From IMG/VR virus record IMGVR_UViG_3300036985_004568, positions 1 to 64,000 of that record: a DNA stretch of 64,000 bases; one strand, written 5' to 3'. Position 1 is the first letter of the stretch. The number at the start of each line of letters is the position of its first letter. A model generated the notes under the pieces. It was not told where the DNA came from. It saw only the letters and a program-made list of their open reading frames with translations, and did no database searches. The position numbers were made by a program, and so were the translations under genes. This document shows positions 8,200 to 53,574 of the stretch, in pieces. Source of the stretch: a virus.

Positions 8200-8265
8200 G
8201 CCAATAGGAATTGAGCTTAATTAGTTATATGTTGTTTAACAATTAAGTTTAAATAGGAGGAACAA

Positions 8266-8472: not shown

Positions 8473-8488
8473 CTAAAAGGAGGAACAA

Positions 8489-8758: not shown

Positions 8759-8784
8759 TTATTTTAGAAAATATGTTATACTTG
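8754..8784 (+). promoter_or_regulatory. Promoter, class 2 (copy 1)
   Basis: GTTGATTATTTTAGAAAATATGTTATACTTG (TTGATT-16 nt-TATACT); 30/31 identical to 26602..26632. Confidence 0.75.
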
Positions 8785-8811
8785 GCTTAACCAATAACAA
8801 GGAGGATTTAA

Positions 8812-21925: not shown

Positions 21926-22119
21926 ATTTGTTATTGGGGATTTTGTTTCATCCTGTCCCCATAATACTCGTTCTAATTTTATGCCTGGGGTTGGGGAGGT
22001 AATAGCGATATTCAAATTAGATAAGACCCCTACTCTTTACGTTTGTGAACACAATACTAACTACTTCTTATATGAGGAAGACCAAATATATCTTTATGAT
22101 CCATATTAGGGGGGGTATA

Positions 22120-22686
22120 ATGAAAATCTGGTTTACAGCGGACTGCCACTTCTTCCATTATAATATTATAAAGTACTGTAAGCGTCCTTTTAACTCTATG
22201 GACGAGATGAACTTAGTGATGATAAAGAATTGGAACTCTAGGGTAAAAAAAGAAGATACTATATTCATAGTGGGTGACTTTATATTCACAAATAGTCCTG
22301 GTGGTAAGCCCGGGGAAGGGGCTCCTATTAATGTACCTACTTTTATGTCCTTACTCAATGGTAATAAAATATTTATAGAGGGCAATCATGATAAAAATAA
22401 TCACACTAATAGCCATATTCAGAAATTAGTTCTAGACTATGGTGGACGAAAGTTAAATTTAGTGCACAATCCTGACCATGCGGATTATAGATATGATATT
22501 AATTTAACTGGGCATGTGCATGAAAAATGGGAAATAAATAGGTATAGGAACGGAGAGTTATTTACTGATTGTATAAATGTTGGTATGGATGTATGGAATT
22601 TCCTGCCAGTAAATTGGGAAGAACTTAATAGTCGATACGCAAAATGGTTGAAATTAAATGGAACATGCACAAGATTTGGTATATAA
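22120..22686 (+). CDS. Calcineurin-like metallophosphoesterase
   Basis: ADCHF, GDF, GNHD, GHVH, INVGMD. Confidence 0.88.
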   Translation: MKIWFTADCHFFHYNIIKYCKRPFNSMDEMNLVMIKNWNSRVKKEDTIFIVGDFIFTNSPGGKPGEGAPINVPTFMSLLNGNKIFIEGNHDKNNHTNSHIQKLVLDYGGRKLNLVHNPDHADYRYDINLTGHVHEKWEINRYRNGELFTDCINVGMDVWNFLPVNWEELNSRYAKWLKLNGTCTRFGI

Positions 22687-27208: not shown

Positions 27209-27576
27209 TGCGCCTACTCATATGTGGAGACCGTAACTGGAAAAATAAGGAATTAATCTTAAATGTTATTAGGGCTATAAGACCTAAGCCTAAAGTTGTA
27301 ATATGTGGTGGTGCCAGTGGCGCTGACACTCTTGCAAAAGAAGTGGCTCTAGAGTTGGGGATTCCAGTTAAAGAATTTATGGCAAATTGGGCACAGTTTG
27401 GTAAGGCAGCTGGCCCAATGCGAAATAAACAAATGTTGCAAGAAGGCAAGCCCACGTATGTTATTGCCTTTCATGATGATATAAAGAACTCTAAAGGTAC
27501 GGCTCATATGCTTTACATTTCTAAGTATTATAAAATACGTACAACTTTATATACTACGAGAGGAATTGAAAAATGA
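27208..27576 (+). CDS. SLOG-family YspA/DUF2493 protein
   Basis: LLICGDRNW, GGASGADTLA, GKAAGPMRNKQM, SKGTAHM. Confidence 0.88.
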   Translation: MRLLICGDRNWKNKELILNVIRAIRPKPKVVICGGASGADTLAKEVALELGIPVKEFMANWAQFGKAAGPMRNKQMLQEGKPTYVIAFHDDIKNSKGTAHMLYISKYYKIRTTLYTTRGIEK

Positions 27577-32129: not shown

Positions 32130-32586
32130 TACTCCCGACTATTTCTTTAAGGGTTGGGCATCCTCCACAGGTAAATACCATCCCGCGTGTACCTGTAAAG
32201 ATGGGGGCCTAGTAGTGCATGTTAAACGCGCTGTTTACATTGCTAATAGGCTATGTGGTGGGTGGGGTTTAGTAGAAGAAAATAGGGATATAGTTCTAGC
32301 TGCAACTATTCTACATGATATAGCTAAAGTTGGGCAGGGATCTGGTCCTTATATAGACTATGTTAATCATCCATTAAATGCTGAGAAGTATTTAATACAA
32401 GACAGCCTTACTCCAGAATTATATACTAAAATTAATAATTGTATACGTCATCATATGGGACTATGGACTCCCGATGGAGTTAAGAAGCCCCTTACAGAGT
32501 ATAGTTTGCTAGAATTGGCAACCTACTCAGCGGACTATATGGCAACTACTAAGGACTTGATTACTCCGGAGGACACACTTGGATAA
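32044..32586 (+). CDS. HD-domain phosphohydrolase (YhaM-like HD domain)
   Basis: ASSTGKYHP, GGLVVH, LHDIAK, HP, HHMG, ADY. Confidence 0.85.
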   Translation: MEKFQVMEKEILLIKNKELQEWVRKSLNNTPDYFFKGWASSTGKYHPACTCKDGGLVVHVKRAVYIANRLCGGWGLVEENRDIVLAATILHDIAKVGQGSGPYIDYVNHPLNAEKYLIQDSLTPELYTKINNCIRHHMGLWTPDGVKKPLTEYSLLELATYSADYMATTKDLITPEDTLG

Positions 32587-33256
32587 ATTAGCCTTAGAGC
32601 AGAGAATTAAGGAACTAGCGCCCTGGTTTCACTATATAGAATTTCCTTATGGTTTAAAGTCCAGAGAGTGCAAGGACCTCAAACATGATGTCTATAACCA
32701 TCCTTTATCCCTAGCAGATAGATTGGAGAAAGTACTTCCAATTAATAGTGTAAAGGATAAATTGATTCTAGATATGGGGTGTAATGGAGGTTACTTTACT
32801 TACCTATATGCTAAAAATGGGGGTAGAGTGGATGCAATGGACCTTAATCGACGTTATGTGGATCAAACTAAATTTGTACGGGAAGTCTTCTCTGAGGAAT
32901 TTAGTACCATGCCAACAGTGTCTATGGCCGATATTGAAACATTAGCAATGCCTCCAGAAACTTACGATATAAGTTTAGGACTAGGTCTTTTATATCACGT
33001 CCCTAATCCCGTCCTTGCCTTACATAATTTCTATAAGGTAACTAAAACGGGAGGACTTTGCATCTTAGAGTCTAATTGCTCTCCTAAAATACCAGAAGGT
33101 ACTGTAGAATTTATGGGAAATATTAAACCATATAGTGCAGTCTGGAGATTTTCTGCACAGACATTAAGAGATATGGTAGAGTATGTCGGATTTAATGTAG
33201 AGGAAAGTATTGTATTTTCTGCCGGTAATAGGATAATCATATACGCCACTAAATGA
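32579..33256 (+). CDS. Class I SAM methyltransferase (DUF1698/CmoB-like)
   Basis: PWFHYIE, ILDMGCNGGYF, GLLYHVPNP, KTGG. Confidence 0.85.
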   Translation: MDKLALEQRIKELAPWFHYIEFPYGLKSRECKDLKHDVYNHPLSLADRLEKVLPINSVKDKLILDMGCNGGYFTYLYAKNGGRVDAMDLNRRYVDQTKFVREVFSEEFSTMPTVSMADIETLAMPPETYDISLGLGLLYHVPNPVLALHNFYKVTKTGGLCILESNCSPKIPEGTVEFMGNIKPYSAVWRFSAQTLRDMVEYVGFNVEESIVFSAGNRIIIYATK

Positions 33257-33513
33257 GTATTAGAAATAATAAATTTAAAGTAGGCCAGATTTGGAAACGG
33301 ACCTTTTCTGATGCAGTCATGTATCAGATTGTATCTTGTAATAAGGGTAAAAATACGTATGCTGACTTTGATCCTATACTATGTAAACGATGTACTATTA
33401 ATTCCATGTTACTACCACCAAAGTGTAATTTAGGATATTGTTGTAGACTACATGTAAATAATACTCATATTAAAAAGTTAACAAAACTTGAAGCATTACT
33501 GGAGAATTTTTAA
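33253..33513 (+). CDS. SH3-like Cys-loop protein, C-terminal tag family
   Basis: FKVGQIW, CKRC; ends KKLTKLEALLENF. Confidence 0.7.
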   Translation: MSIRNNKFKVGQIWKRTFSDAVMYQIVSCNKGKNTYADFDPILCKRCTINSMLLPPKCNLGYCCRLHVNNTHIKKLTKLEALLENF

Positions 33514-35843
33514 TGAAATTTACTTGTACAGATTGTGCATTAAAGAAGGTAGGTTGTGTGACTGGGGAAGGTTTAACTCCGGCACTAATTATGATTGTTT
33601 CAGATAGGCCTACACTGGATGAGGTTAATAATAAGACGGGATTTTCTGGTAAATCTAATGAACAAATAAATTCCTATCTTACTTTGGCTGAAATTCCATT
33701 AGATAAGGTCTATAAGACCTACATAGTTAAGGGATATGTAAAGTCTGGAGCAACAGTTGGTATTGTATCTATTCGTAAGTGTGTACCACATTTAGTCGAA
33801 GAAATTAAATTAGTAAAACCAAAAGTAATAGTACTTCTTGGAGCTACTGCATATAAGGGATTCAAAGGTAAGTCGGGATCTGGAACATACTACTATGATG
33901 AGGAGTTTAGTGCTTGGATAGTCTACAGTTTCCATCCAATGAAGCCAATATATTCTGGGCAAGAGGACGACTTTATGCAGATCGTCTCTCATTTTAAATT
34001 AGCCAAGGAATTAGTAACTCGTAATACTACTCAGACTTTAGCAAAACCAAATGTGGTAGTTGTGCACACCCTGGAAGAATTACAGGCCGTAAAGTCCACA
34101 CTTATGGTAGCCAGTGAATGTGGGATTGACTGTGAAACTACAGGATTAAATCTACAGAAAGATAAATTATTAACTATAGGGTTTGCTACAAAAGAGTTTG
34201 TTATTGGAGTAATCTATAGAAAGGAAATGCAGCAAGATCTTCAGGATATTTTTAATGTACGTAAAATTATTGGGCATAACTTAAAATTTGATATTCAAGT
34301 ATTAAGAAGTAATGGTTTAATCTCTAAGAATGTGGCTGCAGATACAATGCTAGAGCATTATGTGTTAGAACCAATCTCCACAAGTAGGGACCTAGTAAGT
34401 TTGTGTCTTAAGGAGTTTCAAACTACTTTCGAAAAGAACCTAGACTATACCACTCTTTTTGTTAATGGGATAACTTCAGAAATTGAGAACTTACTCGCGG
34501 AACGCGGGGCCCTGGATGCCTATTTATCATTCCTACTCCATGAAAAATTTATTGCTCGTATCCAAGCAGACAAGACTATGAGTAGTTTCTTTTCCAATTG
34601 TGTTATGCCAATTTTAGATTTACTTTGTGAAATAGAGTTTAATGGAATCCATATTGATCAAAATGAGTTGTTCTCTGCTGAAACAGTACTAAACTATGAG
34701 TTGAAGGCTAGGGAGGCGGATATACTAGCTGACCCTGTAGTACAACATTTCGCACAAAAGGAGAATCTAACAGAGATAAATCTTGGCTCACCTAAGCAAA
34801 TGAGTACCTTAATATATAAGTATCTTCACTTTCCAGTACTACGAGAGCAAGGAAGGACAACAGCAAAAGATGTTATAGAGAAGTTAAATGAGACACAAAA
34901 GAATCCTTTTATAACTAAACTCTTAGAGTATAGAAACATGTCCAAGCTACGAGATACTTATATTAAAGGGCTTAAAGAGGCCCTAGATCGTTCTGGTGAA
35001 GATAGGGTACATGTGCAGTATAATCAGACGGTAGTAGTTACTGGACGCTTGAGTTGTTCCGCGCCTAACCTTCAGACTATTCCTAAGGCAGTAGAGAACG
35101 CTAAGACAATTAGAAAGATGTTTGGTGCGCGTTTGGGTTATTCTTTAGTAGAAATGGATTTTAAGCAACTAGAATTTAGAATTTGGGCACATCTTTCCAA
35201 AGATGCAGCAATGTTAAACATGTTAGAGGCTGGAGGGGATATCCATAGAAATATAGCCGCCCTATTAAATGGCGTAGCTGAGCCCCAGGTAACAGATTCC
35301 CAAAGATACCAAGCAAAAGAAATTTGTTTTGGTTTGATTTATGGCATGGGTGTAACCACTATGTCTGATAGAACTGGAATAACGGTAGAAGAGGCAACAC
35401 GTATAAAGAATGACTTCTTCTCAACTTTTCCTGAAGCTACTATATGGATTAAACAGGTACAAGACTTTGGATTAAAGCATAAGTATGTGCTAACTCCTTT
35501 TGGACGTAAAATTCCAATTGTGTATAATCCTAATGATAAAGAACAGATAGCCAGTGCACAACGTCATGCAGTTAACTATCCTATCCAAAGCACCGGTGGA
35601 GACCTTACAAATATTACTGGAGTATATCTAAAGAAACTGATGATTACGGAAGGGATTAATGCTAAAATTGTACTAAACGTCCATGACTCCTTAGTATGGG
35701 AGGTCAAGGACGAGGAAATAGTTAAATTTAAGCCAGTTGCCCTAGAAGCAATTAAAATGATTAGTGATAAGATCAATTTTAGGGCATTTTTACAGGCCTC
35801 TTTTACTCAAGGTAAGAATCTTGGAGAGTTAGTTGAACTTTAA
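33513..35843 (+). CDS. polA: Family A DNA polymerase with N-terminal UDG-like domain and 3'-5' exonuclease
   Basis: UDG-like KPKVIVLLGATA..FHP; exonuclease IDCETTG, HNLKFD; polymerase TGRLS, DFKQLEFR, KEICFGLIYG, VHDS. Confidence 0.95.
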   Translation: MKFTCTDCALKKVGCVTGEGLTPALIMIVSDRPTLDEVNNKTGFSGKSNEQINSYLTLAEIPLDKVYKTYIVKGYVKSGATVGIVSIRKCVPHLVEEIKLVKPKVIVLLGATAYKGFKGKSGSGTYYYDEEFSAWIVYSFHPMKPIYSGQEDDFMQIVSHFKLAKELVTRNTTQTLAKPNVVVVHTLEELQAVKSTLMVASECGIDCETTGLNLQKDKLLTIGFATKEFVIGVIYRKEMQQDLQDIFNVRKIIGHNLKFDIQVLRSNGLISKNVAADTMLEHYVLEPISTSRDLVSLCLKEFQTTFEKNLDYTTLFVNGITSEIENLLAERGALDAYLSFLLHEKFIARIQADKTMSSFFSNCVMPILDLLCEIEFNGIHIDQNELFSAETVLNYELKAREADILADPVVQHFAQKENLTEINLGSPKQMSTLIYKYLHFPVLREQGRTTAKDVIEKLNETQKNPFITKLLEYRNMSKLRDTYIKGLKEALDRSGEDRVHVQYNQTVVVTGRLSCSAPNLQTIPKAVENAKTIRKMFGARLGYSLVEMDFKQLEFRIWAHLSKDAAMLNMLEAGGDIHRNIAALLNGVAEPQVTDSQRYQAKEICFGLIYGMGVTTMSDRTGITVEEATRIKNDFFSTFPEATIWIKQVQDFGLKHKYVLTPFGRKIPIVYNPNDKEQIASAQRHAVNYPIQSTGGDLTNITGVYLKKLMITEGINAKIVLNVHDSLVWEVKDEEIVKFKPVALEAIKMISDKINFRAFLQASFTQGKNLGELVEL

Positions 35844-39431: not shown

Positions 39432-40068
39432 AAAGGGAGTAGAGGTTGAAGCTGGTGTAGATTTAAGGGTGCGTTTAGATCCGGGTTGTCTATCCTGGGA
39501 CCTCTTTCTTTTTGGGGAAGTAGAGCATAGAAGAATTTCGGAACTTATTCAACATATGTTAGTTTTAGATGCTACAAATGATAAACGTTCAATTAATTTA
39601 ATTATTTGTTCACCGGGAGGATACTGTTCCGCAGGATATGCCCTAATAGATACAATGGCTGGCATGAGACATGTAGTTAGAACAATAGCCCTGGGGGAGA
39701 TTTGCTCTATGGGGTCTCTAATCTTTATAGCAGGTACTCCTGGCCAAAGATATATTGGAAGTAGGACCCAAGTTCTTTTTCATCCTATGAGTGAGGAAGT
39801 TGCAGATTATGGTTCTTTTATTAAAGACCGCGTAAAAAGCATTGATCATGCCCAAAAATTAGCAAAAGACCTAATGCGTTCAAGAACTGGTTTACCTAGT
39901 GATATGGTTGAGCTCTCCGAACGAGGAGAAATATGGTTAGATTCTGGAGAGGCCTTAAAATATAAGGTTGCGGATACTATTATTACTGATAATGAGGTAA
40001 TATCGGGGATGTACAAGGAATTACTTAAAGAACGTATAAAAGTTTCACCTAAAAAGGCAAAGAAATAA
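39424..40068 (+). CDS. clpP: ClpP-family protease subunit
   Basis: LFLFGEV, ICSPGG, CSMGS (catalytic Ser), RY..LFHP (His), WLDSGEALKYKVAD. Confidence 0.88.
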   Translation: MNKKGVEVEAGVDLRVRLDPGCLSWDLFLFGEVEHRRISELIQHMLVLDATNDKRSINLIICSPGGYCSAGYALIDTMAGMRHVVRTIALGEICSMGSLIFIAGTPGQRYIGSRTQVLFHPMSEEVADYGSFIKDRVKSIDHAQKLAKDLMRSRTGLPSDMVELSERGEIWLDSGEALKYKVADTIITDNEVISGMYKELLKERIKVSPKKAKK

Positions 40069-40985
40069 TGGTAAAGGTAATTTGTACAGCAGACTTGCAT
40101 ATTGCAGAAAGATTCGACCTAGAACAACAGAAACGTTTATTAGATGTGGTTATATTAGAGGCCAATAAACGCGATGAACTATGGATCTTAGGCGACCTAT
40201 TTCATACTAACCGTATATCTCCTTTAGAACTAATGTTGTTTATTGATTTTATAAAGCAGATTAAAGTGCCAATTATATTAATTGCCGGAAATCATGATAT
40301 GGCTGCAGAAAATTCTTTACTAGACTGGATGCCTAAAGTTTTACCAGTAACAGTTTCCAAAACCTCAATGAGGATTGAACGTGAGGGGGTCTCTGTATTA
40401 TTGGGACATTATAGTGTGGAAGAATCAGTACTTGGTGCATATGATATAAGGTTAAATTCTGGAATATCTGTAAATCAATTAGATGTGGACTTAGCATTGC
40501 TAGGACATATCCATCGCGGCCAGCATATTCAGGGCACAAAGACACAAGTCGTCCATCCGGGTTCATTATTTTATATTGATTTTAATGAACGCAATGATAC
40601 TAAGGCCTTAGTGGAAGTTACATTTGATCAGGGTAAATATATGATAGAACATATAGAGCTCAATCCAGATCCAATTGTACAATTAGATATTACCCCAGAT
40701 AGCGACTCTGATATTTTAAAAGACTATCCTTCTAATTGTAGAGTAAAATTAATTGTACATTACTCAGACCCTAGTCTTAATAAAAAAGAAGTATATAAAA
40801 GATTTGCTAAATTTCTATTTAAAGACCTAAAAGTAGTATTCCTTTATGAGAATAAAAATTTACTTGGAGTAAGTTTACAAGAAGATCATAAAGAAGAAGC
40901 AGGATTACTTAGATTAGACAGGTATCTTACGGAACATACTACTAGTGAGATTAAAGAACTGATATTAATGTTATTAAAGGAGTAA
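40068..40985 (+). CDS. sbcD: SbcD/Mre11-like nuclease
   Basis: ADLH, GDLF, GNHD, GHIH, PGS..DFNE. Confidence 0.88.
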   Translation: MVKVICTADLHIAERFDLEQQKRLLDVVILEANKRDELWILGDLFHTNRISPLELMLFIDFIKQIKVPIILIAGNHDMAAENSLLDWMPKVLPVTVSKTSMRIEREGVSVLLGHYSVEESVLGAYDIRLNSGISVNQLDVDLALLGHIHRGQHIQGTKTQVVHPGSLFYIDFNERNDTKALVEVTFDQGKYMIEHIELNPDPIVQLDITPDSDSDILKDYPSNCRVKLIVHYSDPSLNKKEVYKRFAKFLFKDLKVVFLYENKNLLGVSLQEDHKEEAGLLRLDRYLTEHTTSEIKELILMLLKE

Positions 40986-44350: not shown

Positions 44351-44365
44351 GGTATATAATATATA
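44351..44365 (+). promoter_or_regulatory. Promoter, class 3 motif
   Basis: GGTATATAATATATA then GTAGGAGG; heads the gene run containing deoC. Confidence 0.8.
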
Positions 44366-44378
44366 GTAGGAGGGCTCA

Positions 44379-44723
44379 ATGAGGCTAGAACTGATTAAAG
44401 CAGATACTGTATACGAGGGGATGTCCATCTCAGAAGACGCTTGTAAATCTGTAGTAGATAGTTTTAAGGGTCCAGTATCCATAACATTTGCCACCACTAA
44501 GCTCATTATGGGTAAAATAGTCTCAGTTGAGTATGATCCTATTACTAAGGCCATTTATGGTGAAGTAGAGTTAGATATAGTGGTAATGGCAGGTGTGGAT
44601 GGAACGAAGTCTATAGATACCCCTATGGGTAAGCGCATAATAGACGGAATACTAACTTCAGGAATTTTAGTACCTAAATCTTTGATGCCCGGAGGAAAAA
44701 ATGCCCACAAAATGGACAAGTAA
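44379..44723 (+). CDS. Hypothetical protein
   Basis: AGGAGG RBS; beta-rich. Confidence 0.6.
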   Translation: MRLELIKADTVYEGMSISEDACKSVVDSFKGPVSITFATTKLIMGKIVSVEYDPITKAIYGEVELDIVVMAGVDGTKSIDTPMGKRIIDGILTSGILVPKSLMPGGKNAHKMDK

Positions 44724-45774
44724 AGAAACCCAAATATTAAAGAAATTATTAGAAGACGGAAAGACTCTTCGTGAATGTGCCAATGTTATAAGTAGGCCCT
44801 ATAGTAGTGTTGAACACAAAAGTAGGGAACTACAATTTACCAAACCTGCCGTTCAATTAACAGGGACGATGAAGGACAAGGGCCTTTCTATTAAAATAAT
44901 TCAGACTTTAAAAGATAATTTACGAGGAGTTACCCCATATGTTGCAGCAACTCCTGCATATACTAAAGGGGATACTTTAGTAATACAACTTTCGGATCTC
45001 CATGCTGGTAAGATCGTTAAGGAACAAGATGGTTCTATTAAGTATGACGAGCATGTATTTAGAGTAAGGATTAATTGTCTATTTACACAGATACTTAAAC
45101 TATTGGATAATAATATCACCAAAAGTGTTAAGATCACAAATGTTGTTATATTATCTACTGGGGACCAAGCTAATGGTGAGGGCATCTATGCTACACAGGC
45201 TTATGAACAGGAAATGGCTCCACCCCACCAGGTTATGTTGGTTGTTGAAGTTATTCAGAAATTAATAGTATCTTTACTAGCTAGAAAATTAAATGTTAGT
45301 TTTTACGGAGTTAAAGGTAATCACGGTAGAACTGGTAAAGATATGGATACAACCTCAAACTGGGATTTAATGATATATATGATCCTAGATTTTTGGTCAA
45401 AACAAGTATTAAAGAACCCAAATCTTACAATTAAGTATGCTGAAACAGACTACATGACCTTAGCAATTAGAGGCCATAGGTATCTTATAAGGCACGTTGC
45501 CCCTGAACAGTCAGATAGCCCTTCAGGAAGAGTTAAATTTAATGAGTGGGCTAGAATGCACGGAGTTGAGGCAATAGTATATGGCCATTTCCACCATTTT
45601 GGTCTAAATGATTGTGATGGAGTACGTATTTTTAGGGGGGGATGTGTCCCTGGAGGAGATGCCCTATCAGAACAGATGGCTAAAAGCTCAAATCCTATTC
45701 AGTTGATTTGGGGAGTAAATGAAGCAAGGGTAAGTACATTTTTCTATGCAGTTGACTTGGGAGGGGAAAAATAA
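44701..45774 (+). CDS. HTH plus calcineurin-like metallophosphoesterase
   Basis: WTSKE...HTH; SDLH, GD, GNHG, RH, GHFH. Confidence 0.85.
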   Translation: MPTKWTSKETQILKKLLEDGKTLRECANVISRPYSSVEHKSRELQFTKPAVQLTGTMKDKGLSIKIIQTLKDNLRGVTPYVAATPAYTKGDTLVIQLSDLHAGKIVKEQDGSIKYDEHVFRVRINCLFTQILKLLDNNITKSVKITNVVILSTGDQANGEGIYATQAYEQEMAPPHQVMLVVEVIQKLIVSLLARKLNVSFYGVKGNHGRTGKDMDTTSNWDLMIYMILDFWSKQVLKNPNLTIKYAETDYMTLAIRGHRYLIRHVAPEQSDSPSGRVKFNEWARMHGVEAIVYGHFHHFGLNDCDGVRIFRGGCVPGGDALSEQMAKSSNPIQLIWGVNEARVSTFFYAVDLGGEK

Positions 45775-45775
45775 C

Positions 45776-46465
45776 ATGAATAAACTAGAATTGGCTAAAG
45801 TTATTGACCATACAAATCTTAAACCTGAATTAAATCGTAAGGGGATTATAGCCTTACTTAACGAAGCTAAAGAGTATAACTTTATTGCCGTATGTATTCC
45901 GGCAAGTTGGGTATATTTTGCTAAACAACGATTGGCGGGAACTGGGATCCAAGTAGCCACTGTACCCAACTGGGAATCTGGTGGTGGACTATTGAGATTA
46001 AAAGGAGAGTCTGCTTTTGAAGAAGCTGATGCAATTGACTATATTCTTGATATTCATAGGTTTGTTGTTGGTAAGGACTGGCCTAAAACAGCTATGGAAC
46101 TAGAGCAGATAAGGTTAAAGACCCGTGGAGAACTAAAAATAATTATTGAAACCACCGTTATTAGGGCCGTAGCAGAGGAAAAGAAAGAAAGTTATGAGCT
46201 ACTCCTTAAGAAAGCTTGTAAATTAGTACAAGAATCTGGAGCGAACTGGATAAAGACAGATAGTGGCTTATTTATGAGAGATCCAAAGACTGGAATGCAG
46301 GATTTACTCAATGATGTTAAATTAATGAGGCAGTTCTGCACTCTTCCAGTTAAAGCTGCAGGTGGGATAAAGACTAAGGAAGAAGTTGAAAAGTTAGTTG
46401 AATTAGGGGCTACTAGGATTGGAACATCTAGAGGAGTTTCTATAATTCAAAGTGCAAAGGAGTAA
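45776..46465 (+). CDS. deoC: Deoxyribose-phosphate aldolase
   Basis: IDHTNLKP, AVCI, LKIIIET, WIKTDSG (Schiff-base Lys), VKAAGGIKT, RIGTS. Confidence 0.93.
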   Translation: MNKLELAKVIDHTNLKPELNRKGIIALLNEAKEYNFIAVCIPASWVYFAKQRLAGTGIQVATVPNWESGGGLLRLKGESAFEEADAIDYILDIHRFVVGKDWPKTAMELEQIRLKTRGELKIIIETTVIRAVAEEKKESYELLLKKACKLVQESGANWIKTDSGLFMRDPKTGMQDLLNDVKLMRQFCTLPVKAAGGIKTKEEVEKLVELGATRIGTSRGVSIIQSAKE

Positions 46466-46467
46466 AC

Positions 46468-46839
46468 TTGAATAGACTTATGTTGCAAGAGATTTTTGGA
46501 TTTGCCTTAATCCTAACTGGAATTTTAGATGCCATAAAGTACGTAATACAGGCATCTAAGATACGCAAGGAGAAGTCAGCAGAAGCAATGTCCCGGAGAT
46601 TTGTAAATTATGCCATACTCAATGATATAGTAAAATTAGGCTATGGACTGGTTATTAGAGACCTATTCATTATATCCACCTCAGTCCTAGCTTTAGTATG
46701 TATGCTGTACTTATTTTGGACAGTGTACATTTTTTATAGTTATGAGACCTACCCTAGGAGAGTGTACATAAAGCGCCCTAGTTTATGGAAATACACTATT
46801 AATTCAATAGTGCCAAACAATAAAAGAAAACATCTTTAG
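46468..46839 (+). CDS. SemiSWEET/PQ-loop family transporter
   Basis: Three transmembrane helices; IQASKIRKEKSAEAMS resembles PQxxKxxKxKSAxxxS; YG in TM2. Confidence 0.7.
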   Translation: MNRLMLQEIFGFALILTGILDAIKYVIQASKIRKEKSAEAMSRRFVNYAILNDIVKLGYGLVIRDLFIISTSVLALVCMLYLFWTVYIFYSYETYPRRVYIKRPSLWKYTINSIVPNNKRKHL

Positions 46840-46848
46840 GAGTTAAAT

Positions 46849-48438
46849 ATGGCTGATAATAGAGTAGAAAATACCCCTCCCAGTATAGCACCAAAATTAG
46901 AAGCATTAGACTCCCAATTTAAGTTTGTTACTTATTTAATTGGAGCTATGCAGATCACTGCTGAAAAAGATGGTGGTGGGGAAAAGCGAGAAAATCTTGA
47001 TAAAGAACTTCGTTTAAGAAATGTATTTCCAATTAATCCCGTTAAACTAGAGGAATCCAAAACTGGTATGTCCTCAGAAGAGATTACTATTAAGATGAAG
47101 GGCTGGATAGCATCTGGATGTTGGGATAAATTTGGAGAACAAGCCATTAATATTTGGAAGGGACGTGATTATGTTGAAGCCAACGGAAGTCTCAAGCATG
47201 TACCCGGGGACATTGCTTACTGTACAATGTCTAGCTGGATTACTTTTAGGCTTTCTTCTGGCGACCAGCCTTGTATTGCTAACAATACTCCTATTACAAT
47301 GGCTGACTTTTCTACCAAAATGATTCAAGATATTGTTCCTGGAGATAAGATATTAGGATTTGTTAAAAGAAATAGGAAAACCTATTTAACTGAATCTACT
47401 GTTTTTGAGACGTTAGATAGGGGGATAAAAAGTACAGTGCAGTGTTTAGGGCCAAATTCATCCGTATTTGCTACTCCAGATCATCCATTTTTAACACCCA
47501 ATACACGATCTGGTTCAATTTATGCTCCAGTCAAAGATATTGGGACCTGTTTTGCCACAGATTGCAGTCCATTAACTCTAGAATTTATAAAAGGTTGGTT
47601 TTTAGGTTATACACAACATGATGGAAGTATGATAAATACAAAACATGGGGCGGCTTTAACTTTTTTGTCTAATAAGCAAGAAGAGATAAACAAGGTATAT
47701 GAAGTAATGCAGAAATTAGGACTAACACCTACTCCAGTTAAACGAGGTGGATTAAATTACAAATATTGGGTAGTTGGTACGTATAAAAGGTCCGACATTC
47801 TACTTGTACAAAAATGGCAGAATGAACTAACTGGAAAAGTGCAATTAAAAGGTTGGTTAAGTGGGAGTATTGATGCTGATGGTTATTATGAACTTGAGTC
47901 AATAAGGTACACCCAAGCAGAAGTACATAATAGGAATATAGAACAATTTAAAAAAGCACTTGAGTCTATTGGGATCAAGTATTCCCTACAAGTACGCAAT
48001 CGTAAAGGTCTATTTGGATTACGTAGTATTAATGCAACTCCGGAATACACGATTTGTATGCCGAAAAGTGTTGCTTTTACATGTCCCTCCCTATTAGCAT
48101 ATAAACGTTTAAATTTTAAGTATACTATTGATAAGTTACAGGTACCCATAACCACAATACCTGCTGGCAAGTTGCGAGTTTTTGATCTTGCTACCTCAAC
48201 AGGAAATTTTATGGCTAATGGTTTTATCGTACATAATTGTGGTTCTTACATGGAGTGTGGGATCGCTATGGAACACGGTATACCAATCTATCTTATAACG
48301 GATATACCTAAAAAAGAATTAAAGCAAAGTTTACTACAGGCAATATTAGTGACCCAAGGAGAAGTATTCAGGACTGAGAATGAATATTTACTCTTCATAG
48401 ATAAGAAGTATGATTTAAAGAGGAAAAATGCGGATTAG
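46849..48438 (+). CDS. Nucleoside 2-deoxyribosyltransferase / dNMP N-glycosidase fold protein interrupted by an intein
   Basis: Extein motifs TYLIGAM, INP, GDIAYC and |CGSYMECGIAMEHGIPIY (the GTxxExGxA..xPv catalytic-Glu motif). Confidence 0.75.
   Translation: MADNRVENTPPSIAPKLEALDSQFKFVTYLIGAMQITAEKDGGGEKRENLDKELRLRNVFPINPVKLEESKTGMSSEEITIKMKGWIASGCWDKFGEQAINIWKGRDYVEANGSLKHVPGDIAYCTMSSWITFRLSSGDQPCIANNTPITMADFSTKMIQDIVPGDKILGFVKRNRKTYLTESTVFETLDRGIKSTVQCLGPNSSVFATPDHPFLTPNTRSGSIYAPVKDIGTCFATDCSPLTLEFIKGWFLGYTQHDGSMINTKHGAALTFLSNKQEEINKVYEVMQKLGLTPTPVKRGGLNYKYWVVGTYKRSDILLVQKWQNELTGKVQLKGWLSGSIDADGYYELESIRYTQAEVHNRNIEQFKKALESIGIKYSLQVRNRKGLFGLRSINATPEYTICMPKSVAFTCPSLLAYKRLNFKYTIDKLQVPITTIPAGKLRVFDLATSTGNFMANGFIVHNCGSYMECGIAMEHGIPIYLITDIPKKELKQSLLQAILVTQGEVFRTENEYLLFIDKKYDLKRKNAD
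47272..48237 (+). mobile_element. Intein 3 with LAGLIDADG endonuclease (322 aa)
   Basis: QP|CIANNTPITMAD, ATPDHPF, SGSIDADG, VFDL, GFIVHN|C. Confidence 0.92.
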
Positions 48439-48634
48439 TGTATATTTTAAGTGTAAAGGGTGCATGGGGACGGGTTGGGCAACTCCCAATACTCCTTGTC
48501 CTACATGTAAGGGTAAAGGGGAGGCGCTCCACCAATTCATGGATGTTATAAAGGTAATAGAGTTTCCAGATAACACTGAATACGCAGAACTAGTAGTTAA
48601 GGAGAATAATGCACCCAGTACTAGTAGCAATTAG
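48428..48634 (+). CDS. DnaJ-type zinc-finger small protein
   Basis: CKGCMGTG...CPTCKGKG. Confidence 0.7.
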   Translation: MRISVYFKCKGCMGTGWATPNTPCPTCKGKGEALHQFMDVIKVIEFPDNTEYAELVVKENNAPSTSSN

Positions 48635-48935
48635 TCTTTTCGTAGTAGGGATATTGGAGAACTTCCTAATATCAGTGAATACTGATTTTCGTATTCAGAA
48701 GAGTAGGTGGGGATGCTTTATTACTTCCTTTATTATTGCAGTAACTTGGTGTTATATTGTGGGGACAGTTACTGAAAATCTTACGGTTCTTTGGCTTATT
48801 ACAATTTATTCTATAGGGTATGGTGTAGGGGACGTATTAGGGCTTCATTTTAATAAATACCTGGAGCATATAGTTAAGAAGTATAATCTTAAATTACGCA
48901 AACTTCGTAAGCGTAAACTAAGTAGAAAGAAATAA
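48609..48935 (+). CDS. Small multi-pass membrane protein
   Basis: Three transmembrane segments; YSIGYGVG. Confidence 0.65.
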   Translation: MHPVLVAISLFVVGILENFLISVNTDFRIQKSRWGCFITSFIIAVTWCYIVGTVTENLTVLWLITIYSIGYGVGDVLGLHFNKYLEHIVKKYNLKLRKLRKRKLSRKK

Positions 48936-49082
48936 TGGCAGATCATCCCATAGTTGGCGGAGGTGATACGGAGTATTCAAAAAATTATGATAAAATATTC
49001 CGTAAGCCCCTTAAGGTTCGCCTAATAGATAAGTGGAACAGGTTTCTAATTAAGTTATTTCTTGAGAAAAGAAAGGTATAAT

Positions 49083-49427
49083 ATGTACCGCTATAATACT
49101 ATACGAATTAGTGCTACGGGGTCTATAGAGTCAAGGTTCTTTCCTTATCATATAAATGCTGAGATCATTATGTTAGATTCTAAGCAAAGTACATTAGATA
49201 CAGACATTATAAAGGGCATCCTATCTAAAAACCTCAACTTAAAGAACGGTTCACTAGAGAATATAGCCCGGGTACTAAGTTTAAGATTATCCCGGTACGT
49301 TTTTAAGGCATATCCCTATGTATTAACTATTAAAGTTAAGGTACTTTGTAATGAGGATGGTATTAGCAGTGAAATGGAGCTTTCAGAAGAGGAATTAGTA
49401 ATTGAACAAAACAATGGAGGGTTATAA
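49083..49427 (+). CDS. Hypothetical protein, possible T-fold (QueF/FolB-like)
   Basis: Beta-beta-alpha-alpha-beta-beta pattern with SLENIARVL and VKV..DGISSE; weak support. Confidence 0.3.
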   Translation: MYRYNTIRISATGSIESRFFPYHINAEIIMLDSKQSTLDTDIIKGILSKNLNLKNGSLENIARVLSLRLSRYVFKAYPYVLTIKVKVLCNEDGISSEMELSEEELVIEQNNGGL

Positions 49428-49645
49428 TGGAATTAGTTGCAATGAATATTCAGAATGCTAGGAATTTGGTATGGATAGGGGTTAATATCGGGATAGGTTT
49501 AACAATGGGGTACATAGTTGTATCTTTCATTGGGGGAATACTGTCTTACTTCACTACTCCTAAAAATAATGATGTAGATACTGAGCGGATGTTCCAGGAA
49601 TTATTAAAGAAAAAGGAAGAAGCCGATAATAAGGGGGAATAGACT

Positions 49646-50035
49646 ATGAAATTTAATAAAGTTAAAGATTCTGGTAAGCGGCAGTCCTTTAAATCCGGGG
49701 CAGTTAGAGATACAGCAGAAGGCAAAGGTAGGTATGACCTATTGCCTACAAGGGCCCTTAGAAGATTAGCAGAGCACTATGAAAATGGCGCAAAGAAGTA
49801 TGGGGATGATAACTGGTTAAAAGGAATACCTCTTAAGCGCATGATGGACTCTGCTCTTCGCCATATGTTTAAAGCGCTAGAGGGAAAAGTAGATGAGGAC
49901 CATTTAACTGCTGCTGCTTGGAATATTGTAGGCATAATCGAATTGCAGGAACGAATTGAAGAGGGAATGTTACCAAAAGAACTTGATAATCTTCCAAAGC
50001 AAAAGAAGGTAGTCAAGGAAAGTGGGAGAGATTAA
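49646..50035 (+). CDS. dATP/dGTP diphosphohydrolase domain protein (DUF5664)
   Basis: SGAVRD..GKGRYDLLP, GAKKYGDDNWLKG, DSALRH, EDHLTAAAWN. Confidence 0.88.
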   Translation: MKFNKVKDSGKRQSFKSGAVRDTAEGKGRYDLLPTRALRRLAEHYENGAKKYGDDNWLKGIPLKRMMDSALRHMFKALEGKVDEDHLTAAAWNIVGIIELQERIEEGMLPKELDNLPKQKKVVKESGRD

Positions 50036-50461
50036 ATGTGGAAAAGGACTTATAAGGCTAGAACAAAGAAGAGTTATTTGAATGTGAAAGAGTGCCCCCC
50101 AAAGATTAATGAGGTCATTGGGTACCTATCAATGGACTTTGCTAAGAACAATCTATTGGAAAGGGATGATCTGGCCCAAGATTTATATTTACTCTACTTC
50201 TCCATGCTTAAGAAGCGCCCCGAGTTAGTCAACGCACAACCTGGTTACTTCTTTATTAAATTTAAGTGGTTCTTACTTACTAAATGGAAGAAACGCATTA
50301 AGGACATTTGTAAAGAATGGGATTATAAACTCAGTAAACTTAGGGACTATGATATTCCATTAGATCCAGAAGAACACAACTACTACGCTGAACAGGAGAA
50401 AGAGAAGAAACTCCAACCAAAGGTAAGACTTACTAAGAAGCGTAAACGCTACGGATTCTAG
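50036..50461 (+). CDS. Sigma region-2-like protein
   Basis: ERDDLAQDLYL resembles ECF region 2.2 (DxEDLxQExFL); no C-terminal HTH. Confidence 0.45.
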   Translation: MWKRTYKARTKKSYLNVKECPPKINEVIGYLSMDFAKNNLLERDDLAQDLYLLYFSMLKKRPELVNAQPGYFFIKFKWFLLTKWKKRIKDICKEWDYKLSKLRDYDIPLDPEEHNYYAEQEKEKKLQPKVRLTKKRKRYGF

Positions 50462-50469
50462 GAGAGACT

Positions 50470-50748
50470 ATGGCACATAATGAAGAGGTGGGTAACGTCG
50501 CTGCATATGAGTCAATGATGGCGCAAGTTAAGGAAGAACTTGGTGATACTATTTTTGTAATCGCGGAATTACTAAGTCATGGTTTAACTAAGCGAAAGGT
50601 GGCTAAGACCCTTAATATACCTTATCCAGAACTAAAACAGAAGGTTTTGCTTTTAAGAAAGTACTTTTCTAAAGAATATCATTTAGTGGGAGGTAAAAGT
50701 GGTGGAAAAAAGAAGCGTAGGACGGCCAAAAAAGGCGGATCAAAGTAA
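50470..50748 (+). CDS. Sigma region-4/LuxR-like HTH protein
   Basis: IAELLSHGLTKRKVAKTLNIPYPELKQKV. Confidence 0.55.
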   Translation: MAHNEEVGNVAAYESMMAQVKEELGDTIFVIAELLSHGLTKRKVAKTLNIPYPELKQKVLLLRKYFSKEYHLVGGKSGGKKKRRTAKKGGSK

Positions 50749-51295
50749 ACGGTTATCAATAGCCCAGGAGTACCTCTTAAAGGGGTTTAAGGACCATGAG
50801 ATAGTAGAAGAGATGGCTAAGTTATTCCCGGGTTATACTACTAATATGCTTGTTAGTGATAAGGAGACTATTACAGCCAACTACATCAAGGCTGTTACGG
50901 AGAATAAATATTTATTGGCCAAGCAAGCAGAAACTATCATGAAGCACTTGGACCAGTTAGATATGATTAAAAAGAAGTTATGGGAGATTGAATCCAAGGC
51001 CAATGGGGACACTAAAGGGCAAATTGAGGCCCTAAAGACCCTATTGACAGAATTGGAACATGAGTCCAAGATATTGAAACTTATTGATACCTCACATAAG
51101 ATTATTAAGAACTACATCCATATTGATAAAATTAATATCTTAATGGAGAAGTTGACTGGAGTTATTAGAGAGTTCGTTCCAGAGGATAAACAACCATATG
51201 CTTTTCAGAGGATTAAGGACATGGGTTCTGTTTTGGACACGGAATGTACAGAGATTGCAGACCAAGTAGAAGCAGAAGAAGAGAAGGGTAGATAA
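50699..51295 (+). CDS. Putative terminase small subunit
   Basis: GRPKK plus HTH plus helical oligomerisation region, immediately upstream of terL. Confidence 0.6.
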   Translation: MVEKRSVGRPKKADQSKRLSIAQEYLLKGFKDHEIVEEMAKLFPGYTTNMLVSDKETITANYIKAVTENKYLLAKQAETIMKHLDQLDMIKKKLWEIESKANGDTKGQIEALKTLLTELEHESKILKLIDTSHKIIKNYIHIDKINILMEKLTGVIREFVPEDKQPYAFQRIKDMGSVLDTECTEIADQVEAEEEKGR

Positions 51296-51296
51296 T

Positions 51297-53513
51297 ATGG
51301 GTATAGGTAGCTCTTGGGAAAATTTCTTCGATAAACAGGCAAAGAACACAGCTGCTACAGCTAAGTTCATTGAAAAGCCCACTTCTCCTGAAGTATTCTT
51401 CAGGGACTGGATGGGACAACCCCTATTTCCTGAGCAGTTAAATCCTATTAATGCCATGTTTACTCCAGATCTTGAGAACCTCAATCCTGATATTAATGAG
51501 ATTCTATTAATGTTTGGAGAAGGCGCTGGAAAAGACTTTCTATGTGAGCGCATGTTAATATATGTAGCTTATTGGTTACTGTGCCATAAGAGCCCACAAA
51601 AGTACTTAGGTAGGGCTGAAGGTACGCCTATCGACTTAGTAAATACTTCCGTAAATGAAGAACATGCATCCAATGTATTCTTTGAGCAGTTCTGTGAGGC
51701 CGTAAAATTAGTTATTAATCCCATAACTGGAAAGAATTGGTTTGAAGAACAAGGTATGGATATCCGTTCTGGTAGGGATATACTCACAACTAAAGTAAGG
51801 TTTCCAAAAAATATCACCGCCTATAGTTGTAACAGTGTTAAATACACCGCTGAAGGAAAGAACGTATTAATTGGAATCCTCGACGAGATCGCAGAATTCA
51901 AGTATGATAGGGCTAAATCATTATACACCAACCTTAAAGCTACCGCTACTTCCCGCTTCCCAAACTACCATAAGATAATTTTAATATCTTATTTAAGAGA
52001 CCAGTATGATTTTATGAACAGTCACTGGAACGAGATGGAGGCTTTACCAGAATCTTTGCGTAGGAAGGTATATATGTCAAAAAAGGCTACTTGGGAAGTG
52101 AACCTAATGGTCTCTAAGGCAGATTATGCAGATGCATACGCACAGGATCCAGAAGACTCGGCAAGAAGATATGAAAATATTATGCCTAGTAAAACTGGCC
52201 AGAAGTTTATAAAGAACGGAATTAAGATTACTAATGCTGTATATGACTTTGATGGTTCTCCCATTATATCGGAAACTCCCCATGTTAGTACTAATATAAA
52301 TGAGGAGACCCTGCAGGTTTGGTTTAAGGCGTTTTATATTAAAGAAATTTATAGATTGGAGCAGGAATTAGCCCTAAGTCCCAACAGTGCAGAATTAAGG
52401 GCTAAAATTGATGCATTAAAAGATAACCATAGTGGTGCTAATTATTATATTCATATTGACTTGGCAAAAGGTGCAGTTGACTATGCTGGGTTTTGTATGT
52501 TGCATACTTATCAGAAGACTGAGTCCCAGATTGGATATTACACCGATCTAATCGTACAGTTACAGCCGGATGGCAATGAGATAAATTTTGAGCAGATAAG
52601 GGAATTTATTTTTAAATTACAAAGTATGGGATTTCCAATCGCTAAGGTCTCACTAGATGGGTGGTCCTGTCAATTAGGTACAAATAAAATAAAATTACTT
52701 AATGGCACCACTAAAAGAGTTGACGAAGTAACTCAAAAAGAATGGATTTATGCTTTTGATTCCTCCACTAATAGGATTGTCCCTGCTGAATGTAATCCTG
52801 CACGGAAAACTGGGGAAAATATAGGTTGTTATGGGTTACTTTTAGATAATGGAGAACAGGCTTCGTTTACCGCAGAACATAAAATTTTAATGTTAAATGG
52901 GACTTATAAAAGAGTAATAGATTTAATCCCAGGAGACCAAATAAGGCCTTTAGAATTTAGGGAAAAGAATATTTGGGGTGGGGGAAGTACTTATTTACAA
53001 GTCCACCAACCCTCAAATAAAACTAAAAAATGGCAATTTGTCCATAAAATTGTATCAATTACTTATATTGGTAAAAAGGATGTATATGATTTAGAAGTAC
53101 CTAATTATCATAATGTTGGCCTAGAGTGTGGAATATTTGCACATAATTCAACAGATTTTATGCAATTATTGGATAAAAGGGGAATTCCATGTGAACTAGT
53201 GTCTCTAGATCGCACTATGCAGCCTTATAATACTTTAAAGGATTTATTATACCAGGAGATACTTGAATATTATTATAACCCTATACTACTTAGGGAGTTA
53301 AATGAACTACAGATTATAAATAACAAGGTAGATCATCCTAAAGAAAGTACAGAAAGGTTAAAGGAAGAGGGTAAAAGACTGGGTTCCAAAGACCTTGCTG
53401 ACTCCTTGGCCGGTGCTGTATTTACTGCATCTTCTGCGGGTGGTTCCGGTTCAGGTTGTGTGGTAGAATTAGTGCCGGAAGAGGCCGAAGATAAGTTGGA
53501 TAAACTCTTTTAG
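51297..53513 (+). CDS. terL: Terminase large subunit with mini-intein
   Basis: GEGAGKD, ILDE, ATSRF, ATWEVN, HIDLA, SLDGWS|S, KVDHP, SKDLADSLAG. Confidence 0.92.
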   Translation: MGIGSSWENFFDKQAKNTAATAKFIEKPTSPEVFFRDWMGQPLFPEQLNPINAMFTPDLENLNPDINEILLMFGEGAGKDFLCERMLIYVAYWLLCHKSPQKYLGRAEGTPIDLVNTSVNEEHASNVFFEQFCEAVKLVINPITGKNWFEEQGMDIRSGRDILTTKVRFPKNITAYSCNSVKYTAEGKNVLIGILDEIAEFKYDRAKSLYTNLKATATSRFPNYHKIILISYLRDQYDFMNSHWNEMEALPESLRRKVYMSKKATWEVNLMVSKADYADAYAQDPEDSARRYENIMPSKTGQKFIKNGIKITNAVYDFDGSPIISETPHVSTNINEETLQVWFKAFYIKEIYRLEQELALSPNSAELRAKIDALKDNHSGANYYIHIDLAKGAVDYAGFCMLHTYQKTESQIGYYTDLIVQLQPDGNEINFEQIREFIFKLQSMGFPIAKVSLDGWSCQLGTNKIKLLNGTTKRVDEVTQKEWIYAFDSSTNRIVPAECNPARKTGENIGCYGLLLDNGEQASFTAEHKILMLNGTYKRVIDLIPGDQIRPLEFREKNIWGGGSTYLQVHQPSNKTKKWQFVHKIVSITYIGKKDVYDLEVPNYHNVGLECGIFAHNSTDFMQLLDKRGIPCELVSLDRTMQPYNTLKDLLYQEILEYYYNPILLRELNELQIINNKVDHPKESTERLKEEGKRLGSKDLADSLAGAVFTASSAGGSGSGCVVELVPEEAEDKLDKLF
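52668..53147 (+). mobile_element. Intein 4, mini-intein (160 aa)
   Basis: WS|CQLGTNKI, TAEHK, VYDLEV, IFAHN|S. Confidence 0.9.
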
Positions 53514-53574
53514 ATTGAGGTATTTAGGTAGTTTTCAATATTACAGACAATAATATTATAATAGGAGGTTTAAT

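Follow-up and report, generated by a model that had tools for sequence, protein, structure and literature searches.

A putative deoxynucleotide catabolic route in an uncultured sediment phage: a widespread NDT–DUF5664 pair and a rare DeoC

The first 64 kb of IMG/VR record IMGVR_UViG_3300036985_004568 – hereafter the window – belong to the 95,374-bp genome of an uncultured sediment phage, rated 100% complete by CheckV, and contain between positions 44351 and 50035 a block of genes that may encode a route of deoxynucleotide catabolism. These are, all on the + strand, the genes for a metallophosphoesterase (44701–45774), the deoxyribose-5-phosphate aldolase (DERA) DeoC (45776–46465), a SemiSWEET-fold membrane protein (46468–46839), an enzyme of the nucleoside 2′-deoxyribosyltransferase (NDT) superfamily (46849–48438) and a DUF5664 protein (49646–50035) – the five genes named in a preliminary description of this DNA, each of which was found where it had been placed.

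The DUF5664 protein is a predicted pyrophosphohydrolase of deoxynucleoside triphosphates (dNTPs), yielding deoxynucleoside monophosphates (dNMPs) and pyrophosphate. It matches PF18909 with E 3.4e-21 (75.5 bits against a threshold of 27) and shares 32% identity (E 5e-14) with ALY10775.1 of Arthrobacter phage Wayne, a characterised standalone DUF5664 enzyme that turns dATP, dUTP and dGTP into the respective dNMPs (PMC12884076). The conversion of dNTP to dNMP that the preliminary description gave for this family is thus correct (PMC12884076).

The NDT-like gene is interrupted by an intein. Residues 1–141 (46849–47271), with Tyr29, Pro64 and Asp121, form the N-extein; residues 142–463 (47272–48237) are a LAGLIDADG intein of 322 residues, detected by PF14528 and PF14890; and residues 464–529 (48238–48438) form the C-extein, which bears the motif CGSYME with the predicted nucleophile Glu469. 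The boundaries, set by alignment to the intein-free metagenomic homologue P0001, give an intein that starts with Cys1, ends in His-Asn and is followed by Cys+1, with the insertion point five residues ahead of the catalytic Glu. The spliced extein of 207 residues is collinear with P0001 without a gap, at 79% identity, and intein-free homologues, ten of which were found first, measure 197–219 residues. Several related clusters of 520–546 residues seemingly carry an insert at the same place, and L010 shows one (L and G numbers denote loci or genomes of relatives).

Searched with a profile, 1.84 billion representative proteins yielded only 131 clusters at E ≤1e-3, and across 46 diverse members Tyr29, Pro64, Asp121, Gly143 and Glu147 (the equivalent of Glu469 in the unspliced window protein) are invariant. 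The profile of these 46 members, A3, matches the solved NDTs 2a0k (E 5e-6) and 7m5h as well as YtoQ and BcmB; the alignments bring the catalytic residues Tyr, Asp/Asn and Glu into line, and Pro64 is likewise aligned to the solved NDTs; a profile of only ten close homologues gave nothing but chance matches against the PDB, so that the 46-member profile was needed. The fold was judged on an AlphaFold model of P0001 (mean predicted local distance difference test, pLDDT, 77), that is, on the 79%-identical intein-free homologue rather than on the spliced window protein: VIA-align gives Z 13.7 with 7o62 and 7m5h and 12.7 with DNPH1 (8rpt), and all 50 best structural matches belong to the NDT superfamily. 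Between about residues 64 and 119 the model contains elements of a family-specific insertion of some 40–55 residues, made up of helices and a β-hairpin. Neither extein nor P0001 has a Pfam match, nor do the exteins match NCBIfam; PF05014 is sub-threshold in 26 of the 46 members (best E 6.7e-7; L082 reaches 25.1 bits against 28.8) and PF15891 in 18, and tblastn against 50,697 GenBank phages found no relative of the NDT-like protein. The missed PF05014 threshold places the protein in a separate family within the NDT superfamily. The NDT fold with retained Tyr/Asp/Glu that had been proposed from the letters alone is borne out by these structure and profile searches of P0001 and its family, and the protein is, as predicted from alignment and model, a catalytically intact member of the superfamily with a family of its own.

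DeoC, of 229 residues, passes the equivalog model TIGR00126 with 127.6 bits against a cut-off of 117.3, over residues 5–225. It keeps the motifs IDY (at 87), IKTDSG (at 159) and VKAAGG (at 192), all three invariant in three phage DeoCs and in a 21-member phage clade; we take IKTDSG, VKAAGG and IDY to correspond to the catalytic residues of the E. coli enzyme – the Schiff-base Lys, the second Lys and the proton-relay Asp, respectively. Phage-type DeoCs make up a clade of about 23 clusters at 44–100% identity, with cellular DeoCs apart at ≤40%. Among the 50,697 GenBank phage records, deoC is nearly absent, with 15 matches; two that were checked (Enterococcus, fecal) are flagged UNVERIFIED, and the sole large bona fide phage record is that of a 735-kb megaphage. 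No NDT or DUF5664 gene lies near deoC in the Enterococcus, fecal and megaphage records, as judged from 10-kb flanks or, for the fecal record, its whole 5.2 kb, so that these checked records provide no independent replicate of the association in GenBank. The DeoC gene of the distant relative L095 (8001–9707) holds a 339-residue intein-like insert directly after the Schiff-base lysine (ADYIK | C...VHN | SDSGLF), and its product after splicing would be 228 residues long. An intein in DeoC is, to our knowledge, unusual; with one active-site intein in the NDT-like enzyme and another in the L095 DeoC, both genes appear to be conserved targets of homing in this group of phages.

The neighbourhood of the NDT-like gene was compared across ten viral and 61 metagenomic loci that hold relatives of it, collapsed into lineages at 95% identity; the lineages are mutually related, and raw counts overstate their independence. 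Of the 28 lineages whose sequence extends at least 1.5 kb downstream of the NDT-like gene, 23 have a DUF5664 gene within 1.6 kb on that side, and this pair is a conserved and widespread core. With deoC the picture is narrower: it lies upstream of the NDT-like gene in four of 26 lineages, to which L095, found after the count, must be added, and since loci were found by short peptide patterns, the counts of deoC-bearing phages are lower bounds. The co-occurrence in related phages on which the preliminary description had staked its proposal therefore holds broadly for the NDT-like and DUF5664 genes but for deoC in few relatives only. In the window genome, L001 and L018, the SemiSWEET gene alone stands between deoC and the NDT-like gene; in L007, L082 and L095, deoC directly precedes the latter. 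The NDT-like genes so placed belong to three subfamilies with a mutual identity of only 23–28%, and L007 and L082 share the same gene order, with deoC 49% but the NDT-like protein 23% identical. That adjacency to deoC has outlasted replacement of the NDT-like gene is good evidence of functional coupling, and supports a real link between the two predicted enzymes through deoxyribose-5-phosphate (dR5P). Contigs of the same size in the match lists hint at further copies of the block, whether for deoC and NDT (32404, 12623, 3796), deoC and SemiSWEET (13347, 5749) or SemiSWEET and NDT (3462).

Where DUF5664 is absent, a helical protein of 123–125 residues follows the NDT-like gene (L007 10932–11303 and L082 7365–7742; 68% identical). 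The L007 copy matches DUF1599 (‘nucleotide modification associated domain 1’) weakly, at E 1e-3, and the L082 copy has no Pfam match; given this weak DUF1599 match and no hhalign similarity to DUF5664, the idea that it replaces DUF5664 is only a lead.

The closest functional precedent comes from the work of Poubanne et al. (NAR 2026; PMC12884076), in which 2-aminoadenine phages of the PurZ0 type pair DUF5664-1/DutZ with the NDT-like enzyme DmtZ. DmtZ hydrolyses dAMP to adenine and dR5P, also moves dR5P from dAMP onto 2-aminoadenine, and relies on the triad Tyr6/Asn77/Glu103 with a transferase-type Pro57; its published assay is coupled via E. coli DeoC (PMC12884076). In phage Wayne, the DUF5664 and DmtZ genes are one gene apart. 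The window phage resembles the DmtZ/DutZ phages (Wayne, Gordonia phage Ghobes) in having a standalone DUF5664 gene in the neighbourhood of an NDT-superfamily gene, and the Tyr, Pro64, Asp/Asn (Asn77) and Glu (Glu103) positions of its NDT-like family are in register with those of DmtZ. It differs from the PurZ0 phages in lacking PurZ (no PF00709 match), and its NDT-like family differs from DmtZ in being about 207 residues long, in the insertion of some 40–55 residues, in the Asp instead of Asn in the triad, in a longer substrate loop after Tyr29 and in the active-site intein that some members carry. DeoC, present here as a third step, is not reported in the Z-phage paper (PMC12884076).

Other members of the superfamily are informative as well. 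The 5′-monophosphate N-glycosidases DNPH1/Rcl, MilB and BcmB share the fold (Z 10.3–12.7), the Tyr/Asp/Glu arrangement and the predicted product, (deoxy)ribose-5-phosphate, which is what DeoC requires; however, identities are 10–17%, the window family keeps the transferase-type proline, and the block has neither an antibiotic-biosynthesis nor a eukaryotic context. Classical NDTs (PF05014/PF15891) give the best profile and structure matches (2a0k at E 5e-6; 7o62 and 7m5h at Z 13.7), but their substrates are nucleosides and no sugar phosphate is set free, which makes them a poor fit with the neighbours DUF5664 and DeoC. In the bacterial deo regulon and in DERA-based microcompartments for sugar phosphates, DeoC ends a route that takes DNA-derived dR5P to glyceraldehyde-3-phosphate and acetaldehyde (PMC11585597). 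There, with DeoA, DeoB and DeoD, dR5P arises from nucleosides via a phosphorylase and phosphopentomutase, whereas here it would come directly from dNMP through the proposed N-glycosidase; and unlike cellular systems, the window DeoC is set in a string of phage replication and late genes with no acetaldehyde-handling enzyme nearby. The same domain pairing as in the window phage group occurs in UPU15984.1 of Stenotrophomonas phage Jojan60 (L011 3203–4324), annotated as ‘purine trans deoxyribosylase’, in which a DUF4406 domain of the NDT clan (E 6e-13) is fused to DUF5664 (E 1.6e-32). This fusion differs in that it involves another NDT-clan family, matches profile A3 weakly (E 0.0018) and has no deoC nearby; in a cultured phage, it is a candidate single-chain dNTP-to-base enzyme, as its domains suggest.

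Taken together, the products of the block can be read as a three-step route. The DUF5664 protein, by homology to the characterised enzyme, would hydrolyse one or more dNTPs to dNMP and pyrophosphate. In the second step, suggested by fold and triad and by the example of DmtZ, Glu469 of the spliced NDT-like enzyme, positioned by Tyr29 and Asp121, would attack C1′ of the dNMP; the base would leave, and the resulting deoxyribosyl-5-phosphate–enzyme would be resolved either by water, which frees dR5P, or by an acceptor base, which takes the sugar. DeoC, to judge by its equivalog-level family membership, would then cut dR5P into glyceraldehyde-3-phosphate and acetaldehyde, making the removal irreversible, avoiding a build-up of sugar phosphate and returning carbon to glycolysis. 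The net effect would be the base-selective removal of a deoxynucleotide from the pool of the infected cell. Accessory parts might be played by the metallophosphoesterase, which may supply dNMPs from DNA, and by the SemiSWEET-fold protein, which may carry a product or substrate across the membrane. Since free dR5P, which would be the sole substrate of DeoC here, arises only if the NDT-fold enzyme hydrolyses a 5′-phosphorylated deoxynucleotide, the neighbourhood argues for a dNMP N-glycosidase, at least in part. DERA is reversible, but its direction in vivo is catabolic; accumulation of dR5P is harmful in deoC mutants, which would give a reason to add DeoC. As chemistry, the sequence DUF5664 – NDT fold – DeoC put forward by the preliminary description is coherent, and its first two steps have experimental precedent (PMC12884076). 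That the region encodes such a catabolic route, with a widespread two-enzyme core and a rarely attached DeoC, is a reading of gene content and context that we judge to be about evenly balanced between right and wrong.

Several observations weigh against it. The pair of DUF5664 and NDT-like genes is separated in the window by five unrelated small genes, and the contigs of L007 and L082 have no PF18909 match. With deoC beside the NDT-like gene in only four of 26 lineages, DeoC is evidently not needed for the core function, and in G001 it lies about 18 kb away. The NDT-like protein has no Pfam match, with its relatives below the gathering threshold; its likeness to DmtZ is weak and at the level of the superfamily only (hhalign probability 30% with the Ghobes protein and 76% with that of Wayne); and its invariant Pro64 is of the type that the DmtZ paper calls typical of transferases, so that transfer rather than hydrolysis may be the main activity. 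Nor was a modified-base pathway found that would justify excluding a canonical base. In the whole genome there is no match for PurZ (PF00709), TGT/DpdA (PF01702), ThyA (PF00303) or ThyX (PF02511), and none for the large subunit of class I/II ribonucleotide reductase (RNR; PF02867), the class III family not having been searched. The absence of RNR from the window, remarked on in the preliminary description, thus extends to the whole genome for the class I/II family PF02867, with the same limit as to class III. With no match for PurZ, RNR (class I/II), ThyA, ThyX or TGT/DpdA, no modified-base programme requiring canonical-base exclusion is evident; readings in terms of a Z genome, 7-deazaguanine or a hydroxymethylated pyrimidine are unsupported, and the suggestion that the target is a canonical base kept out of a modified genome is likewise without support. 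A phage without a match for RNR (class I/II) or thymidylate synthase would, moreover, seem to need its dNMPs. The three-step proposal is thus supported in part, by the proximity of the NDT-like and DUF5664 genes and by the coupling to deoC, with the qualification that the pair was published in 2026 and that few relatives have deoC.

Pro64 also bears on an alternative in which the NDT-like enzyme is mainly a dR5P transferase that exchanges the base of a dNMP supplied by DUF5664 for one that is salvaged or is imported, possibly by the SemiSWEET-fold or BT1/MFS transporters; the product would be a dNMP of use to the phage and perhaps non-canonical, and DeoC would only clear dR5P from a hydrolytic side reaction. 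DmtZ sets a precedent in moving dR5P from dAMP to 2-aminoadenine, the transferase-type proline is invariant in the window family, and structural searches also recover the designed phosphodeoxyribosyltransferase 4hx9 (Z 11.7). The window holds a BT1-family transporter gene, with relatives close to the NDT-like gene of L009 and the SemiSWEET gene of L090, and in L003 the gene right after the NDT-like one resembles those of dNMP kinases. Against this, the SemiSWEET and NDT-like genes are unlinked in most relatives, and the surroundings of the block in the window showed no dNMP kinase. A gene for the synthesis of an unusual base was not found either (no PurZ, TGT, ThyA or ThyX match in the genome), and a pure transferase would free no dR5P, leaving the conserved adjacency of deoC unexplained; on this balance we consider the exchange unlikely. 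Its bolder extension – that this widespread group of sediment phages replaces a DNA base in a way so far unrecognised, with no PurZ, DpdA or enzyme of the thymidylate synthase type, the NDT-like enzyme swapping in an imported or host-derived non-canonical base, the SemiSWEET-fold and BT1/MFS proteins importing it and DeoC clearing the by-product – is a long shot.

It might also be that the genes are separate auxiliary and DNA-metabolism genes that merely share a packed middle/late transcription unit: DeoC would burn the deoxyribose of degraded host DNA together with host DeoA, DeoB and DeoD, the NDT-like enzyme would serve nucleoside salvage, and DUF5664 would be a general house-cleaning pyrophosphatase. 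The gene string does continue without gaps into sigma-like and terminase genes, DUF5664 is common in phages without NDT or deoC (299 GenBank records), deoC is distant from the NDT-like gene in G001, and relatives of the SemiSWEET and metallophosphoesterase genes are located elsewhere in other genomes. Mere coincidence, however, sits badly with an NDT–DUF5664 adjacency in 23 of 28 lineages, to which the Jojan60 fusion may be added, and with a deoC–NDT adjacency that persists in three NDT subfamilies and in as many gene orders; as classical NDTs free no phosphorylated sugar, a nucleoside enzyme would not explain the link with DeoC. We regard this account as decidedly unlikely. Destruction of dNMPs by a phage that has no RNR match and no modified-base pathway would be explained if the route served counter-defence, its target being a nucleotide made by a defence system or used in defence signalling, such as a chain-terminating or deaminated dNTP analogue, and human DNPH1, a structural match at Z 12.7, sanitises 5-hydroxymethyl-dUMP (hmdUMP) according to PDB entry titles. 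Yet the characterised DUF5664 uses dATP, dUTP and dGTP, all canonical (PMC12884076), and the genes around the block gave no sign of a defence or anti-defence context, which leaves this a speculation about the substrate, and a highly improbable one. Least credible, and scarcely to be entertained, is the anabolic direction, in which a reversed DeoC reaction would join glyceraldehyde-3-phosphate and acetaldehyde into dR5P, to which the NDT-like enzyme would add a base, as an RNR-independent source of dNMP. The reversibility of DERA and the absence of an RNR match (class I/II searched) speak for it, but NDT-type enzymes need a nucleoside or a nucleotide as donor to build their glycosyl-enzyme and do not start from the free hemiacetal of the sugar, hydrolysis is by far the favoured direction for the N-glycosidic bond, and DUF5664 would be left without a function; the Pfam-scanned proteins of the window showed no phosphopentomutase or nucleoside phosphorylase, no dedicated search having been made. 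A reverse route supplying deoxyribose, as the preliminary description allowed, is thus chemically unlikely for a glycosyl-enzyme mechanism.

The activities of DUF5664 and DmtZ having been published in 2026, steps 1 and 2 of the proposed catabolic route are known biology; the new part is the phage DeoC as a third step, the NDT family and the DUF5664/NDT pair in non-Z phages. If the catabolic route is real, phages would degrade a deoxynucleotide fully to central-carbon metabolites, beyond shifting its phosphorylation state; the DUF5664/NDT pairing would be a general tool for the nucleotide pool, used without a known base substitution; and a new family of the NDT superfamily would be defined, with about 131 clusters and none in GenBank phages. 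The substrate of the NDT-like enzyme could indicate which nucleotide these phages must exclude or exchange. In practical terms, the block offers three testable enzymes with a ready-made coupled assay, as the phage encodes the same DeoC coupling that the DmtZ assay uses.

The other two genes of the block need separate consideration. The metallophosphoesterase is of the calcineurin type (PF00149, 26.1 bits against a cut-off of 21.5), with an N-terminal region resembling a helix-turn-helix, and belongs to a phage family that carries the annotation label ‘exonuclease’ in phrog_284 (E 1.8e-39). Relatives, known from 142 GenBank phages (Bacillus, Lactobacillus, haloviruses), bear the annotations exonuclease, metallophosphatase or PolII small subunit. 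In six genomes its gene immediately precedes the deoC block; apart from this position, there is no support for a role as nucleotidase or phosphatase, and since the protein falls into an exonuclease/metallophosphatase family in which nothing marks it as a nucleotide enzyme, its inclusion in the candidate cluster of the preliminary description is not supported. Three metallophosphoesterases are encoded in all: a Metallophos_2 protein at 22045–22686, SbcD at 40068–40985 (with RuvC and SbcC) and the phrog_284 protein of the block; the SbcD partner of SbcC is thus a separate gene. In L001, the closest relative, the metallophosphoesterase at the same position (7677–8837) is 28% identical to that of the window, with neighbouring proteins at 59–93%, which from these identities is probably an allele swap at a fixed position.

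The SemiSWEET-like protein is below sequence cut-offs, with 18.9 against 23.7 bits for PF03083 MtN3_slv (E 1.5e-3) and 22 against 80 for NCBIfam NF037968 SemiSWEET_2. Its AlphaFold model (pLDDT 82), however, is a bundle of three helices with SemiSWEET topology, has SemiSWEET or SWEET proteins as all 12 of its best Foldseek matches, and superposes on 4rng with a target template-modelling score of 0.87 and a root-mean-square deviation of 1.4 Å over 81 columns; the E-values are weak (≥0.018), as expected for a helical domain of 80 residues. SWEET/PQ-loop proteins account for 17 of the 30 nearest Atlas clusters, and tblastn found no match in the 50,697 GenBank phages. The Gln of the motif KYxIQAxKI is invariant in the family, and the residue before it is presumably not the canonical Pro of a PQ motif. 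After the third helix comes a conserved basic C-terminal tail (window 46720–46839; K-R/K-P ... Y..NS..PN..R..L), present in 19 of 19 family members; we know of no other SemiSWEETs with such a conserved cytoplasmic tail.

In the six genomes with adjacent deoC and NDT-like genes, the metallophosphoesterase and SemiSWEET-fold genes stay with the block in varying order: metallophosphoesterase–deoC–SWEET–NDT in the window, metallophosphoesterase–SWEET–deoC–NDT in L095, and metallophosphoesterase–x–deoC–NDT with SWEET further on in L007 and L082. In most relatives without deoC, the SemiSWEET gene instead lies between RuvC and SbcD, far from the NDT/deoC position, and the metallophosphoesterase gene is kilobases away from the NDT-like gene. 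The SemiSWEET-like transporter of the preliminary description is thus supported as a fold by the model, but its place in the block is not shared by most relatives. Other transporter genes were seen. An 85-residue membrane protein directly 5′ of the SemiSWEET-fold gene of L082 (7745–8002) weakly matches PnuC/nicotinamide mononucleotide transporters (E 0.003); this similarity hints that the two proteins may form a two-part transporter of the riboside type. The window also encodes a major facilitator superfamily (MFS) transporter of the BT1 (folate-biopterin transporter) family (20756–21925, E 2.5e-15), with relatives near the NDT-like gene in L009 (8008–9210) and near the SemiSWEET gene in L090 (9133–10338).

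As to transcription, the preliminary description had set the block behind a single promoter. A plausible candidate is the promoter-like 15-mer GGTATATAATATATA (44351–44365, + strand), which lies 4 bp 5′ of an AGGAGG ribosome-binding site and has five exact + strand copies within the window; the next such motif, GTTTTCAAT at 53531, precedes the portal gene. From 44379 to 53513 run about 19 consecutive + strand genes with intergenic gaps all ≤10 bp, and no terminator-like site was found on the + strand between 43 and 54 kb. Besides the deoC/NDT block, the presumed transcription unit includes two sigma-like genes, terS and a putatively intein-bearing terL; extending as it does into the sigma-like and both terminase genes, it is not a dedicated metabolic operon, and the single-promoter claim holds only with the proviso that the unit also spans the terminase genes.

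Its leading gene (44379–44723, + strand) encodes a 114-residue protein of a family that we call F20, which has no Pfam family above threshold, adjoins the deoC-bearing block in the window genome, L001, L018, L007 and L082 only, and has an Atlas structure lead to the N-terminal part of prohead protease/scaffold proteins. Between the genes for the NDT-like enzyme and DUF5664 stand five small ones (48428–49642, + strand), which encode a CxxC zinc-ribbon protein (68 residues), a DUF5698 membrane protein (108 residues) and proteins of 48, 121 and 71 residues; the DUF5698 gene and the 48-residue gene recur in six related loci. With blastn, the region has no match in the 50,697 GenBank phages.

Elsewhere in the window, Pfam detects LAGLIDADG-type inteins in the primase-helicase (27573–32129) as well as in the NDT-like enzyme (46849–48438), and the large terminase (51297–53513) appears to be interrupted by an insert, as judged from split tblastn matches and the sequence. 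Between the intein-bearing primase-helicase and the DNA polymerase lie genes for an HD-domain phosphohydrolase and a class I S-adenosylmethionine-dependent methyltransferase (31903–33256), a pair that could carry out further nucleotide chemistry. The polymerase itself, of family A (33513–35843), begins with a domain of the uracil-DNA-glycosylase superfamily (PF03167, E 1.1e-11), and the polymerase of L095 begins likewise.

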